64,000 nt of DNA from Helicobacteraceae bacterium (GTDB taxonomy: Bacteria > Campylobacterota > Campylobacteria > Campylobacterales > Sulfurimonadaceae). Positions 38,532 to 43,177 of this stretch are shown here, one piece after another (position 1 is the stretch's first letter; each line of letters begins with the position of its first letter). Both the position numbers and the translations under genes were made by a program. The stretch lies in the NCBI GenBank assembly GCA_027038835.1, contig JALWGC010000011.1, positions 12,837 to 76,836 of the forward strand, read 5' to 3'. The notes below the pieces were generated by a model. It had not been told where the DNA came from. It saw only the letters and a list, made by a program, of their open reading frames with translations, and did no database searches.

Positions 38532-38867
38532 ATGGGAGCTACATTTCATACAGAAAAACCGGGAGATGTTCCGGTATGGGTAAACAAACACAACTGTAAA
38601 GCGTGTGACATCTGTGTGTCGGTATGTCCAGCGGGTGTTTTAGCGATGGTTTACGATCCGTCATCGACACTTGGTGCGAATATCAATATAGAGTATCCAG
38701 ATTCTTGTATCGGGTGCATGGAGTGTGAGCTTTCTTGCCCAGACTTCGCTATATATGTTGCCGATAGAAAAGAATACAAATTCGCGAAACTTTCTGACGA
38801 AGCGAAAGAGAGACAAGAAAAGATTCGTGCGAACAACTATATGTCACTAAATCAAGGAGCTAACTAA
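38532..38867 (+). CDS. oorD: 2-oxoglutarate:ferredoxin oxidoreductase delta subunit (2x 4Fe-4S)
   Basis: Two ferredoxin Cys clusters (CKACDICVSVCP; CIGCMECELSCP). First gene of an oorDABC-ordered set, as in C. jejuni/H. pylori. Confidence 0.85.
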   Translation: MGATFHTEKPGDVPVWVNKHNCKACDICVSVCPAGVLAMVYDPSSTLGANINIEYPDSCIGCMECELSCPDFAIYVADRKEYKFAKLSDEAKERQEKIRANNYMSLNQGAN

Positions 38868-40021
38868 TGGCAAGAGAAGTAATCTCAACGGGAAATGAAC
38901 TCGCAGCACGTGCGGCAGTCGATGCAGGAGCGAGATTTTTTGGTGGTTATCCGATTACACCATCTTCTGAAGTGATGCATGAAGCAAGTGATCTTCTTCC
39001 AAAAGTTGGTGGAAAATTTATTCAAATGGAAGATGAGATTGGCGGTATCTCCGTAGCGCTTGGTGCGTCTATGTCGGGCGTAAAGTCTTTTACAGCGACT
39101 TCAGGTCCCGGTATATCTCTAAAAGCGGAGCAAATCGGTCTTGGGTTTATCGCTGAGATTCCGCTCGTTATCGTAAACGTTATGCGTGGTGGTCCATCAA
39201 CAGGTCTTCCAACACGTGTTTCTCAAGCGGATATCGGTCAAGCTAAATATCCTACACATGGGGATTTCGCTTCCATTACACTTTGTGCCGGTAGTTTGAC
39301 AGAGTGTTACACTCAGACTGTTAGAGCGTTCAACTTGGCTGAAAAATACATGACTCCAGTATTTATGCTTTTGGATGAGACTATCGGTCACATGCACGGT
39401 AAAGCGGTTCTTCCCGATCTTGAGGAAGTTGAAGCGAATATTGTTAACAGAAAAAGATTCGACGGTGATCCAAAAGATTACCGACCATACGACGTACCGA
39501 TGGATACTCCGGCGGTTCTCAACCCAATGTTCGAAGGGTATAGATACCACATTACCGGTCTTCACCACGGTCCTACAGGTTTCCCTACAGAGGATGCTGA
39601 ACAATGTGAATTCAATATCGAGCGCCTTGTCGGTAAAATCAACCGCGTAGCGGAGCAAAACGATGGACTTGACGATCTTCCGGATTATGAAGAAGTTTTG
39701 ATGGATGATGCGGAAGTATGTATCATCGCTTACGGTTCAATCGCACTCGGTGCATTCGAAGCGGTACACAAACTAAGAGCAGAAGGTATCAAAGCAGGGC
39801 TTTTTAGACCGATTATGCTCTGGCCAAGCCCAGCGAAAAAGATCAAAGAGATCGGTGAAAGATTCGGCGATAAAATCATGGTAACCGAGCTCAACATGGG
39901 TCAATATTCAGAAGAGATCGAAAGAATCATCAAAAGAAACGATTTTACAAGATTGCTCAAAGCAAACGGAAGACCAATCGCACCGGCAGAAATGGTAGCA
40001 AAAGTTAAGGAGATGATGTAA
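38867..40021 (+). CDS. oorA: 2-oxoglutarate:ferredoxin oxidoreductase alpha subunit
   Basis: The N-terminus (GNELAARAAVDAGARFFGGYPITPSSE) is typical of 2-oxoacid:acceptor oxidoreductase alpha subunits. Confidence 0.88.
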   Translation: MAREVISTGNELAARAAVDAGARFFGGYPITPSSEVMHEASDLLPKVGGKFIQMEDEIGGISVALGASMSGVKSFTATSGPGISLKAEQIGLGFIAEIPLVIVNVMRGGPSTGLPTRVSQADIGQAKYPTHGDFASITLCAGSLTECYTQTVRAFNLAEKYMTPVFMLLDETIGHMHGKAVLPDLEEVEANIVNRKRFDGDPKDYRPYDVPMDTPAVLNPMFEGYRYHITGLHHGPTGFPTEDAEQCEFNIERLVGKINRVAEQNDGLDDLPDYEEVLMDDAEVCIIAYGSIALGAFEAVHKLRAEGIKAGLFRPIMLWPSPAKKIKEIGERFGDKIMVTELNMGQYSEEIERIIKRNDFTRLLKANGRPIAPAEMVAKVKEMM

Positions 40022-40875
40022 TGGCATTTAACTACGAAAAATACCTTAGAATTGAAAAGATGCCGACACTTTGGTGTTGGGGATGTGGTGACGGTGTTAT
40101 TCTTAAATCCGTTATCCGTGCTATTGATAAATGTGGATGGAATATGGACGATGTTTGTATCGTTTCTGGGATTGGATGTTCGGGAAGATTCTCTTCATAC
40201 ATCGACTGTAACACGGTGCATACGACTCATGGTAGAACCGTTGCATATGCAACAGGTATCAAGCTTGCAAATCCTGACAAGCATGTTATCGTCGTTGCGG
40301 GTGATGGTGACGGTCTTGCTATCGGTGGTAACCATACAATCCATGGTTGTAGAAGAAACATCGATTTGAATTTCATTCTTATCAACAACTTCATCTACGG
40401 TCTTACAAACTCGCAAATCTCACCTACGACTCCACAAGGTATGTGGTGTGTAAGTGCGAAACGTGGTAATATCGATCCGACGTTCGATGCTTGTAAACTT
40501 GCAATGGGTGCTGGAGCGTCTTTTGTTGCAAGAGAGACAATGATCGATCCGAAAAAACTTGAAAAAATCCTTGTAAAAGGTTTCCAACACAAAGGTTTCA
40601 GTTTCTTCGATATCATGTCTAACTGTCACATCAACCTTGGTAGAAAGAATAAAATGCAAAACGCTATCCAAAACCTCGAGTGGATAGACAGCATCACTTT
40701 ACCACTGAAAAAATGGGAAGCACTTCCTGAAGAGGAAAAAATGAACAAGTTCCCAACAGGTGTGCTAAGACAAGTTGAGCAGCCAGAATACTGTGAGCTT
40801 TACGATATGGTTATCGAAGCGGCTCAAGGTAAAAGAAGCAAAATCACTCAAGATGATTTTGAGAAAAAAATATAA
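40021..40875 (+). CDS. oorB: 2-oxoglutarate:ferredoxin oxidoreductase beta subunit (TPP-binding)
   Basis: WCWGCGDG Cys motif and GDGDGLAIGGNH TPP-binding motif. Confidence 0.88.
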   Translation: MAFNYEKYLRIEKMPTLWCWGCGDGVILKSVIRAIDKCGWNMDDVCIVSGIGCSGRFSSYIDCNTVHTTHGRTVAYATGIKLANPDKHVIVVAGDGDGLAIGGNHTIHGCRRNIDLNFILINNFIYGLTNSQISPTTPQGMWCVSAKRGNIDPTFDACKLAMGAGASFVARETMIDPKKLEKILVKGFQHKGFSFFDIMSNCHINLGRKNKMQNAIQNLEWIDSITLPLKKWEALPEEEKMNKFPTGVLRQVEQPEYCELYDMVIEAAQGKRSKITQDDFEKKI

Positions 40876-40884
40876 GGATACCCA

Positions 40885-41448
40885 ATGGCAAGACATACTT
40901 TAAGATTTACGGGTGTTGGTGGTCAAGGTGTTCTTCTTGCAGGTGAAATTATGGCTGCTTGTAAGATCAAAATGGGTGGATACGGTCTTAAAACCGCTAC
41001 ATATACTTCTCAAGTGCGTGGCGGACCGACTGTGGTTGATATCACTCTCGATGATGATGAAATCCGCTACCCTTATGCGAATGAGGGTGAAATCGATTTT
41101 ATGCTCTCAGTCGCGGATGTTTCGTACCAGTCTTTTAAAAACGGTGTGAAACCGGGCGGTATCATCGTCGTTGACCCGAACTTGGCATATCCGACAGATG
41201 AAGATAGAGAAAAATGGAGAGTTTACGAGATTCCAATCATCACCATAGCGAAAGAAGAGGTTGGTAATGTTATTACTCAATCTGTCGTTGCGCTTGCGAT
41301 TGCAAATACAATGACGGGAGTTCTTCCACATGAAGAGCTTATAGAAACTATGCTTTCAAAAGTTCCACCAAAAGTTCATGAAGCGAATAAACTTGCATAT
41401 GAGCTTGGTAAAAAATATGCGGAAGAGGCGATGGCTAAAGGGAAATAA
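40885..41448 (+). CDS. oorC: 2-oxoglutarate:ferredoxin oxidoreductase gamma subunit
   Basis: GVGGQGVLLAGEI N-terminal motif of gamma subunits. Last gene of the set. Confidence 0.88.
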   Translation: MARHTLRFTGVGGQGVLLAGEIMAACKIKMGGYGLKTATYTSQVRGGPTVVDITLDDDEIRYPYANEGEIDFMLSVADVSYQSFKNGVKPGGIIVVDPNLAYPTDEDREKWRVYEIPIITIAKEEVGNVITQSVVALAIANTMTGVLPHEELIETMLSKVPPKVHEANKLAYELGKKYAEEAMAKGK

Positions 41449-41462
41449 TCTTTCCAGTAAGA

Positions 41463-41489
41463 AAGAGGGTGTTTTGCCCTCTTTTTTTT
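41463..41489 (+). terminator. rho-independent terminator after oorC
   Basis: AAGAGGG-TGTTTTG-CCCTCTT followed by a T-run of eight. Confidence 0.8.
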
Positions 41490-41648
41490 ATTGTGTTTAC
41501 TTCATATTATATAGTATTATTTGTAATATTGTATAATATTAAGAAATGAAGACAGGAAAGAAGCTTCTTTGTTATTCTTTTTTAGCGGTGAAAGTCAGTT
41601 TCGTTACGGAAAATTGATTTATATAAAACATCTTTGTCAACGCTGAAA

Positions 41649-42245
41649 CTACTGTACCTTGATACCTTCCCAAAAAAAATCGACATGTTTTTCCATTTGA
41701 GTCGAGAGATGGCTTGTACTTTCGCTGTCGATGCGAAGTAGGGTAATATGAAATCGAATGTAAAATAGTGAGCTTAAAAACTCGTATGCTACAAGCATCG
41801 GATCGTTAGAGCGGATCAACCCCTCTTGCATCATTATAAAAAACGCTTCGGAGAGAAGTTTGATGTTTTTATCGTGAAATTCTTGAATGAACTTTTTGCG
41901 TAACGCTTCGTTGGTAAAAAGTTCTATAAGTAATAATCTAAACATTTTTTCCGAATTTTTATCGAACGTGACAAGCTTGTAGGTTGTTGCAAACCTTGCC
42001 AAAAAAGGTTTTCCACGTTTTGCTTCTTCTTGAATTTTTTCTCTATCGAGCTCTACAGAAGTAGCGAAGATTTCATCTGCAATCGTTAAAAAAATTTCTT
42101 CTTTATTCTTGAAATGGTTATACAAAGCACTCTCTCTAATCCCAACTTTCGATGCTATTTTCCTTACACTCGTAGCTTTGTATCCAAGCTGTGAGAATAG
42201 GGTACTCGCTTCTTTGAGTATCTTCTCTTTTGTACTTAAAGACAT
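41649..42245 (-). CDS. TetR family transcriptional regulator
   Basis: N-terminal HTH (FSQLGYKATSVRKIASKVGIRESALYNHFKNKEEI) with an all-helical C-terminal domain. Confidence 0.85.
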   Translation of the reverse strand: MSLSTKEKILKEASTLFSQLGYKATSVRKIASKVGIRESALYNHFKNKEEIFLTIADEIFATSVELDREKIQEEAKRGKPFLARFATTYKLVTFDKNSEKMFRLLLIELFTNEALRKKFIQEFHDKNIKLLSEAFFIMMQEGLIRSNDPMLVAYEFLSSLFYIRFHITLLRIDSESTSHLSTQMEKHVDFFWEGIKVQ

Positions 42246-42335
42246 CGTTTTTCTCCTTGCATGTTGTAGCGAAACTGATTGTACTATATAAAATTCTATA
42301 TAGCGTAAATAGTGTCAAACACCCTATTTTAGGGT

Positions 42336-42447
42336 ATGAACATTTGTTAATATTGTATCGAAAATATATTAACAAGCGTTCATTTCAACAAATTGGAAAA
42401 TGAACGATTGTTCATATTTAGTTTTGACGGTATGAACAAATGTTCAC
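42336..42447. promoter_or_regulatory. array of four 16-bp palindromic sites (ATGAAC-N4-GTTCAT) phased every 32 bp
   Basis: Sites are ATGAACATTTGTTAAT (42336), ATTAACAAGCGTTCAT (42368), ATGAACGATTGTTCAT (42400) and ATGAACAAATGTTCAC (42432). Site starts are exactly 32 nt apart. The function as an operator is inferred. Confidence 0.5.
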
Positions 42448-42458
42448 ACCTTATTTTA

Positions 42459-42467
42459 TGATATAAT
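42459..42467 (+). promoter_or_regulatory. extended -10 promoter (TGATATAAT) for rnpB
   Basis: TGnTATAAT ends 9 nt before the first base of the RNase P RNA P1 stem. Confidence 0.6.
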
Positions 42468-42476
42468 TTCGTAATA

Positions 42477-42820
42477 ATTCGGGTGCAGCGGAGTGTTGCT
42501 TGTTGATTGCAACAAGAGGAAAGTCCGAGCTGCTCCAAGAGAGTGTTCCATCTAACGGATGGCTGGGGTAACCCAAGGGAAAGTGCAACAGAAACTAGAC
42601 TTCTACTTGCTTGTCATGTACAAGAAGTAGTAAAGGTGAAACGGTGGTGTAAGAGACCACCAGTCCTTGCAGCAATGCTTGGAGCTTGTAAACCCAACAC
42701 GGCAGCAAGAAGCGTATGGTAAAACTCTTGGATTGTAGCGCTTCGCTTGAGATGTATTGTGAAATACATATTAGATTAATAACCTCCAAGACAGAACTCG
42801 GCTTATAGCTGCACCCGAAT
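42477..42820 (+). ncRNA. rnpB: RNase P RNA (bacterial type A)
   Basis: Universal motif GAGGAAAGTCCG at 42516-42527, AAGTGCAACAGAAA, GGTGTAAGAGACCACC, and ACAGAACTCGGCTTA near the 3' end. P1 pairing ATTCGGGTGCAGC (42477-42489) with GCTGCACCCGAAT (42808-42820). Confidence 0.92.
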
Positions 42821-42946
42821 TTCGATGTCATATACGATAATATGAATATTAACCGGTGTTCATCCTGTTTTTTGACATAAAAATATTTTCAAGAGAATTT
42901 ACATTATGTTAACCAAAAACAATCTATCTCCCAGAAAGGATACATT

Positions 42947-43177
42947 TTGAATGAAAATCAAAAAGAACTCGATCTCAAGCAAAAGCTCATTCTCGACATA
43001 CAAAAACTACTAAATAGCTACGATGCGACTCATACGACGACTATCAACCCCTCTTTGCTCCAGTATATGGATGAAAAAGATTTGAAACAGATCATAGATG
43101 ATCTTTTGACACAAAAAGAGCAGCTTCTCGATCAAAATAAAGAATGGCTTTCTCAATTTAAAAAAGACTACAAATAA
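42947..43177 (+). CDS. small hypothetical protein (76 aa, helical/charged)
   Basis: TTG start lies 8 nt after AAGGA. No recognisable motif. Coding status is uncertain. Confidence 0.4.
   Translation: MNENQKELDLKQKLILDIQKLLNSYDATHTTTINPSLLQYMDEKDLKQIIDDLLTQKEQLLDQNKEWLSQFKKDYK

Follow-up and report, generated by a model that had tools for sequence, protein, structure and literature searches.

A phased, probable TetR-family operator array associated with the dif locus in Campylobacterales

What is a row of four evenly spaced palindromes doing in front of the gene for RNase P RNA? The question is raised by a 64,000-nt stretch of a draft genome from the Sulfurimonadaceae (contig JALWGC010000011.1; the whole stretch is called the window below), in which four 16-bp palindromes with the consensus ATGAACAnnTGTTCAT start exactly 32 nt apart at 42336-42447, between a gene for a TetR-family regulator and rnpB. 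A first, sequence-only reading of the window connected these sites with the TetR protein, with the rnpB promoter, or with a repressor of the SOS type. It is proposed here, with a probability of roughly 80%, that the palindromes are the operator array of the TetR protein encoded 90 nt away, and that array and gene are part of a unit conserved at the dif locus. The regulator with its phased operators is a conserved component of that locus in Sulfurimonas-, Sulfurovum-, Nitratiruptor- and related Campylobacterales, and the evidence for this is given first, followed by what the bound array might do there.

The palindromic array and the gene that it accompanies

The four sites, to which no strand is assigned, differ in quality when scored with a matrix derived from orthologous loci. 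Site 1 (42336..42351, ATGAACATTTGTTAAT; 24.1 bits), the closest to the TetR gene, has a weaker GTTAAT half, and its position is kept in the orthologous upstream regions of relatives. Site 2 (42368..42383, ATTAACAAGCGTTCAT; 25.1 bits) lies 32 nt from it, and site 3 (42400..42415, ATGAACGATTGTTCAT; 28.3 bits) is a perfect palindrome and the top-scoring site of the genome. Site 4 (42432..42447, ATGAACAAATGTTCAC; 20.3 bits) extends over the -35 region that the rnpB promoter has in the present genome. Positions, spacing and the perfection of the third palindrome were verified exactly as they had first been described, and so was a larger inverted repeat with sites 1 and 2 as its outer ends. This repeat exists because the weaker GTTAAT/ATTAAC half-sites face each other in this genome, unlike in relatives, where both point the same way. 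Only the motif had to be redrawn: the sites themselves are real, but ATGAAC-N4-GTTCAT is too short a description, the informative part being TGAACA-N2-TGTTCA within ATGAACAnnTGTTCAT. The window holds five matches to the motif with at most one mismatch, all of them inside 42336-42863 (530 bp).

The neighbouring gene (41649..42245, minus strand) encodes 198 amino acids. Its divergent orientation, its distance of about 90 nt from the first site and its assignment to the TetR family are confirmed, the last by a match to PF00440 (TetR_N; E = 1.7e-14, 53.8 bits against a cut-off of 24) accompanied by a weak match to TetR_C_7. The AlphaFold model (predicted local distance difference test, pLDDT, 87) has 10 helices in the standard TetR fold, and the top Foldseek matches are all TetR regulators, the nearest solved structures including the ligand-responsive proteins FrrA, MexL, SmeT, Lmo2088 and FadR. 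Among NCBIfam equivalogs none reaches its cut-off, with RefZ (46 bits) and SlmA (27 bits) far below theirs. Kinship with SlmA or RefZ was considered and rejected, as neither sequence nor fold brings the protein nearer to them than to ordinary TetRs. Orthologues with 43-80% identity were found in six families of Campylobacterales (80% within the genus, 58-69% within the family and 43-60% in the other families), including 16 of 40 close relatives. None was found outside Campylobacterales among 301 genomes of the phylum, and the Helicobacter, Campylobacter and Arcobacter-type families are devoid of the unit.

The array follows this gene closely. When 16 orthologous loci were aligned upstream of the gene, each showed three to five phased sites just upstream of the TetR start. 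Exactly four sites are carried by 73 of the 80 named Sulfurimonadaceae loci, and the pattern recurs in another 40 loci, drawn from four other families. Altogether, in about 140 loci from six families, every orthologue but one truncated copy has three to five sites, mostly four, and in all orthologous loci the palindromes lie 20-90 nt from the TetR start codon. The exception (genome G138, locus L204, G138:C1:1162964-1163482) is an N-terminally truncated and displaced orthologue, and it has no array. Co-occurrence was also examined in 401 genomes of the order with a strict two-site pattern, the reversed pattern serving as control: of the 105 genomes that have the orthologue, 74 show the array pattern, against 15 of the 296 that do not have it (Fisher p = 3e-40). 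Since the reversed pattern matches 18 of the 401 genomes, the 15 matches in orthologue-less genomes correspond to the control rate. The array is assigned to the TetR gene because it accompanies the orthologue in six families whatever lies opposite. The identification of the four palindromes as binding sites of the adjacent protein, the first of the early proposals, is well supported by this co-occurrence and by the promoter elements inside the array discussed below, though it is drawn from comparison of sequences.

The phasing is conserved as well, which answers a point on which the sequence-only reading had looked to related species. Pooled over the approximately 140 loci, the site-to-site spacings fall into discrete classes (bp: cases; 21: 2, 22: 10, 31: 50, 32: 216, 33: 17, 34: 1, 42: 25, 43: 23, 53: 1 and 64: 1). 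The single 64-bp spacing reflects a skipped site, and no spacings lie between the whole-turn classes. Every family has a class of its own: spacings of 22 or 32 bp are found in Nitratiruptor-type genomes, 31-32 bp in Sulfurimonadaceae and 42-43 bp in Sulfurovaceae. The spacing varies by whole helical turns (about 10.6 bp) only, while the number of four is kept, which argues that the bound dimers must share one face of the DNA.

A weight matrix made from 317 orthologous sites was used to scan the whole genome (1.97 Mb) for other targets. At a threshold of 12 bits it gave 11 positions, of which four are the array and the other seven all fall within long open reading frames (ORFs); no intergenic site beyond the array was found, and chance does not account for the cluster. 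The motif has thus no intergenic regulon of the kind that a whole-genome search had been expected to define, and the idea that it might occur at similar density in the intergenic DNA of this genome fails on the same result. Scanning of 26 complete genomes for perfect TGAACANNTGTTCA sites gave a comparable picture: 16 off-array sites from 11 relatives were checked for context, and 15 of them are inside ORFs of at least 120 amino acids, the lone intergenic exception being in G331.

Two observations concern the short interval between array and gene. The palindrome ACCCTATTTTAGGGT (42321-42335) abuts site 1, and the homologous stretch in relatives, CCCTGTTTTCGGGCAT, encodes the N-terminus of the TetR protein (MPENR...). 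In this genus, the former TetR start seems to have decayed and now carries TAA, the start codon having shifted about 70 nt downstream.

Association with dif and with the replication terminus

On the other side of rnpB, 440 bp from the array, lies the chromosomal dif site (42887..42914, plus strand), dif being the sequence at the replication terminus at which joined chromosomes are resolved. It is a 28-bp site of 11-6-11 form, TTTCAAGAGAA-TTTACA-TTATGTTAACC (in full TTTCAAGAGAATTTACATTATGTTAACC), with its XerC-type arm towards the array. It occurs once in 1.97 Mb, in the intergenic region between rnpB and a small ORF, and has one mismatch to the published dif of Sulfurimonas denitrificans (PMC2731167). 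Carnoy and Roten list dif for S. denitrificans, Sulfurovum NBC37-1 and Nitratiruptor SB155-2 (PMC2731167); the published coordinates for these three genomes are within 0.2-0.8 kb of the TetR orthologues found here. In the present genome, tblastn with XerH gave three stretches similar to tyrosine recombinases (24-31% identity).

The linkage extends through both families that use a classical dif. In 57 of the 80 Sulfurimonadaceae loci, a classical dif is at the same place, 376-1840 bp beyond the array. In the complete genomes of the two families, dif lies 0.55-3.7 kb from the TetR gene in 13 of 15, and at 10.5 kb in one more; in all these 14 it is on the array side, turns its XerC-type arm towards the array and provides one pattern match beside the TetR gene. 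One genome (G052) has a second, one-mismatch dif match far from that gene, and in G138, the genome with the truncated orthologue, no classical dif was found.

Two other families (Nitratiruptor-type and f4) use a different Xer system, and the unit is found there too. In these genomes difH is located 172-266 nt from the TetR start and is followed by xerH, the product of which matches the Helicobacter pylori XerH structure 5jjv with E = 4e-103. The resulting layout, TetR gene, array, difH and xerH, can be compared with the single-recombinase modules xerS-difSL and xerH-difH described before (PMC1914069, PMC2731167, PMC3325230). The position of difH, about 50 bp before xerH, is as published for Nitratiruptor SB155-2, whereas the published descriptions mention no adjoining regulator or operator array (PMC2731167). 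Helicobacter and Campylobacter lack the unit, while in the genomes considered here it also stands beside classical dif with no xer gene nearby. Full-text searches of the literature gave no description of a TetR-family protein or an operator array at dif. The comparison suggests that the unit has stayed beside a functional dif through a change of the recombination system.

The location of dif places the replication terminus within the window, and the GC skew of the contig agrees with it, being positive to 56 kb, approximately zero to 64 kb and then negative, with dif at 55.7 kb. A place near 50% of three complete chromosomes first drew attention to the position of the TetR gene. In relatives, dif and the TetR gene are opposite dnaA: in 25 of 26 complete genomes (four families, ten genera) the gene is at 0.448-0.556 of the chromosome from dnaA, the terminus position following from the unit staying beside dif. 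The one complete genome with an orthologue off the terminus is again G138 (0.72 of the chromosome). The genes rnpB and oorA, which adjoin the unit here, are at 24-38% or 73-88% of the chromosome in two of these families. An exact coincidence of the array with the switch of GC skew was also considered and set aside; in four relatives the two are within 10-35 kb, a resolution that cannot tell the hypotheses apart. In one genome, the skew is inverted over 35 kb beside the terminus (G040:C1:595000-630000), which suggests a recent inversion near dif.

What the bound array may do

The first proposed function is control of the regulator's own gene. One dimer would bind each 16-bp site ATGAACAnnTGTTCAT, and the whole-turn spacing would place the four dimers on the same face of the helix, where they most likely bind cooperatively and form a single nucleoprotein complex; this is also how the conserved phasing is read here. 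The complex would cover the promoter of the TetR gene, with its -10 element between sites 1 and 2, so that the gene represses itself. In Sulfurimonadaceae, ATTATAT (TATAAT on the strand of the TetR gene) is conserved between sites 1 and 2, abutting site 2. In Sulfurovaceae, the elements are TTGACa, site 1 filling the 17-nt spacer, and then TATAAT. By analogy with these relatives, TACAAT (42352..42357, minus strand), which abuts site 1 between sites 1 and 2, is the candidate -10 box in the window, where the overlap of operator and promoter is predicted by that analogy. Autorepression by four cooperatively bound dimers can be considered well supported by the comparison of loci, even though it is deduced.

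An arrangement of this kind is in part familiar. Known autoregulated TetR systems share with it a helix-turn-helix protein of the TetR family adjoining its own palindromic operators, and known multi-dimer TetR operators share an operator over the own promoter and several dimers per control region. QacR reportedly binds IR1 as two dimers, and EthR has been reported as an octamer on a 55-bp operator. In contrast to operators of the QacR/EthR type, the present array consists of four separate 16-bp palindromes two, three or four whole turns apart and not of a single uninterrupted footprint. Six families keep both the phasing and the number of four, no gene for efflux or for an enzyme serves as a target, and the array has a fixed place at dif. 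It represents a known type of element in an unusual variant, made noteworthy by its conserved association with dif.

Does the complex do more than repress its own gene? Probably it also has a role at dif or the terminus, which is deduced, weakly, because the TetR protein has no other detectable target and because four phased sites are kept beside dif even where no xer gene is adjacent. The bound complex would sit just upstream of an outward promoter, that of xerH in difH genomes and that of rnpB here, with none in Sulfurovaceae. The ancestral role may have been control of the divergent xerH; alternatively, the complex may mark or shape the dif region. Looser roles are conceivable, namely a gate or helper of Xer recombination, a non-polar roadblock, a terminus tag or a dosage-sensitive switch triggered by replication of the terminus. 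The stronger proposal, that in several families of sulfur-oxidising and vent Campylobacterales a dedicated TetR-family complex of four dimers on one face of the DNA acts from the dif locus on the terminus by helping or gating Xer recombination, pinning the meeting of forks or tethering dif to the septum, is put forward only tentatively.

The best-surviving alternative, held with the same reserve and perhaps a one-in-three prospect, takes the bound array as an architectural device of the terminus instead of, or besides, gene regulation: an accessory or synapsis element for Xer, as at cer and psi, a roadblock that sets the meeting point of forks, as RTP does beside its own gene, or a tag that links dif to the division machinery, in the manner of MatP or ZapT. 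It gains from the fact that the unit persists beside dif under both of two unrelated Xer systems (classical dif, and difH with xerH), always on the XerC-arm side of the classical site. The unit has also remained at the antipode of dnaA while its neighbours moved, Sulfurovaceae have no outward-facing gene for it to regulate, no further intergenic target is found in this genome, and four sites on the same face at two, three or four turns suggest a higher-order complex. However, the fold is that of a ligand-responsive TetR, the Helicobacter, Campylobacter and Arcobacter-type families manage without the unit, and the arrays of artificial repressors that are known to stall forks are far larger than four dimers. 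The sites form a single cluster restricted to one side of dif, and genomes differ, even inside one genus, in how this cluster is oriented to the replichores; a single symmetric cluster of changing side speaks against a fork trap with polarity. Array and dif are separated by a variable, unphased distance, with a whole rnpB gene inserted between, and this variability, together with an unconserved gap and a half-turn spread, speaks against a rigid scaffold for recombination.

The array can be compared with known terminus and recombination systems. In Bacillus subtilis, rtp adjoins TerI/TerII, where about four RTP dimers repress rtp. As in that system, a gene for a DNA-binding protein at the terminus adjoins here about four dimer sites that would also repress it. 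RTP, however, is a winged-helix protein with asymmetric, polar sites and with more Ter sites on both sides, in contrast to one symmetric cluster on one side here. With regard to replication terminators in general, the sites do lie at the terminus beside the gene, but opposed polar groups are absent, each genome having a single symmetric cluster. SlmA and RefZ share the TetR fold; they control FtsZ from the chromosomal sites to which they bind, and signalling of chromosome position, in place of gene regulation, is their main job. Their sites, however, are dispersed over the chromosome, whereas there is one cluster here. The accessory sequences of cer and psi, which bind PepA with ArgR or ArcA, resemble the array in being a protein-binding region on the XerC-arm side in which several protein units could wrap the DNA (PMC2655662). 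They differ in the protein family, in that the present array is chromosomal, and in the fixed short distance of such sequences: here the side is conserved, while the distance is unphased and ranges from 45 bp to kilobases.

Several further points weigh against the proposed unit and its role at dif. The separation of array and dif is not fixed, extending from about 45 nt to 10 kb. From site 4 to difH the distance is 62.5-67.5 bp, with three cases at 92.5-104.5 bp, and one difH is inverted. A helical phasing of site 4 with difH was therefore judged unconvincing, as the distances scatter across half a turn, which makes a rigid architecture for recombination less likely. In about 14 of the 80 Sulfurimonadaceae loci and in several other genera, dif was not found within the flank of about 1.4-2.8 kb. 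The gap of 250-620 nt between site 4 and dif in Sulfurovaceae (L193-L208) holds no conserved element, no xerH remnant and no ORF of at least 60 amino acids, so that in this family the array has no outward gene to act on. The position at the terminus could partly be inherited and not selected, and the positional control consists of one linked gene pair, rnpB and oorA. Judged by its predicted structure, the protein looks like an ordinary ligand-responsive TetR and not like SlmA or RefZ. In the window itself, the start codon of the TetR gene is, as in the whole genus, 90 nt away from site 1; the ATTATAT and CTTA spacer elements conserved in relatives are absent from the array, for which reason the assignment of the promoter to TACAAT at 42352-42357 is weak, and a consensus sigma-70 promoter scan of the region gave nothing above chance and did not pick this box.

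If the proposed action on the terminus is true, the unit would join Tus/RTP and MatP/ZapT as a third type of device at the terminus, one that outlived an exchange of the recombinase system. What is known of termination and dimer resolution in Campylobacterota is largely confined to XerH/difH in Helicobacter, and we know of no Tus, RTP, MatP, SlmA or Noc in this phylum. The TetR protein is a testable candidate for a terminus factor: it is of the repressor type, and the one target that can be detected for it is a rigidly phased cluster of four sites by dif. The unit is kept in six families and beside two different Xer systems, and Sulfurimonas, Sulfurovum NBC37-1 and Nitratiruptor SB155-2 are culturable carriers. 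The jumps of spacing by whole turns (22, 32, 43 and 53 bp) offer a natural example of helical phasing that would be useful for studies of cooperative binding, and for annotation, dif and the terminus are now located in this draft genome.

The second alternative is that the array serves RNase P RNA, the TetR protein being a dedicated rnpB repressor that couples the synthesis of this stable RNA to a ligand. rnpB (42480..42821, plus strand; RNase P RNA class A, RF00010, 237.7 bits) lies between the array and dif in Sulfurimonadaceae, and site 4 ends 11 nt upstream of the extended -10 element of its promoter (TGATATAAT, 42459..42467, plus strand). The early remark that this is roughly the position of a -35 element is correct, and the overlap of site 4 with the -35 region in this genome is a point for such control. 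Further points are that rnpB is the divergent neighbour of the TetR gene in 79 of the 80 named Sulfurimonadaceae loci and that site 4 and the rnpB 5' end tend to be 44-45 nt apart. This distance, however, ranges over 30-78 nt, and in most Sulfurimonas site 4 is centred some 50 nt before the rnpB start, clear of the core promoter. rnpB is the divergent neighbour in Sulfurimonadaceae only: five other families and several genera of Sulfurimonadaceae have the array and the TetR orthologue with no rnpB beside them. Opposite the array there may be QueC, a gene of the ferredoxin-reductase type, an unknown gene, xerH or nothing, and in the other families rnpB stays with the oor operon, far from the TetR gene. 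Dedicated control of rnpB is largely refuted by this comparison and must be considered improbable. Judging from the loci compared, the array is not conserved for the sake of rnpB, which appears as a bystander. Some effect of site 4 on rnpB is possible in this genome, where the bound site may damp the promoter, and the overlap would be a by-product of local gene order.

Much less probable still is that the TetR gene with its operators is the remnant of a dif-integrated mobile element (IMEX), kept by accident. The unit abuts dif, which is a known hotspot for such elements (PMC2731167), and a repressor gene with operators is typical of element immunity regions, but no second dif-like site is present on the far side of the TetR gene, no other element genes travel with the unit, six families keep four intact phased sites, and the identity of the protein declines with taxonomic distance as in vertical descent. 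The last possibility, that the sites are Cheo-type LexA boxes of an SOS regulon, has next to no chance: the core GAAC-N4-GTTC does fit the Gram-positive LexA box and paired CGAACATATGTTCG boxes exist in other families of Campylobacterales (f19 and f23), but a search of this 100%-complete genome for the LexA DNA-binding domain (PF01726) found none, whereas it succeeded in 10 of 14 controls, the flanks are A/T (AT..AT) and not C/G, the matrix scan shows no recA-, uvr- or lexA-type targets, and the motif co-occurs with the TetR gene. As a caution for annotation, the array should be labelled neither as rnpB control nor as SOS control.

Neighbouring genes and minor observations

The order oorDABC and then rnpB (38867-42821 here) is kept in four families, with oorA and rnpB 2-5 kb apart except in G052, and in Sulfurimonadaceae the TetR/array unit lies between oorC and rnpB. 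In relatives, TGTAcAAT or TATAAT is found about 9 nt before the mature rnpB 5' end. Many Sulfurimonas loci (L032-L110) share the sequence TATAAAGGAAT in the interval from site 4 to the rnpB promoter, about 25-35 nt upstream of the -10 element; it may be a promoter-proximal element.

Close to dif, a weak fifth TetR-like site (42848..42863, no strand assigned; ATTAACCGGTGTTCAT) is present 24 nt before it. The distance of 416 nt, equal to 13 x 32, drew attention to this site, but it was rejected as a meaningful one: it scores 10.7 bits only, 15 positions in the genome score equally high, and no counterpart beside dif was found in 56 relatives, the same genus included. It is lineage-specific and possibly due to chance. 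On the far side, an ORF at 42947-43177 begins 33 nt after dif and encodes a helical product of 76 amino acids with no Pfam match. It is kept in 22 of 40 relatives with 33-67% identity, including genomes without the TetR gene, and in L010 it adjoins dif. This small ORF and the response regulator downstream were considered as the true conserved target of the array and rejected, since the ORF is present without the TetR gene and is often distant.

Finally, the paired CGAACATATGTTCG-type boxes of f19 and f23 are 33-44 bp apart (G107:C33:56824-56868, G316:C20:6032-6076, G348:C325:3301-3345, G230:C2:38804-38838, and G317). They look like true double operators of the LexA type, and the idea of a Cheo-box may apply to them.

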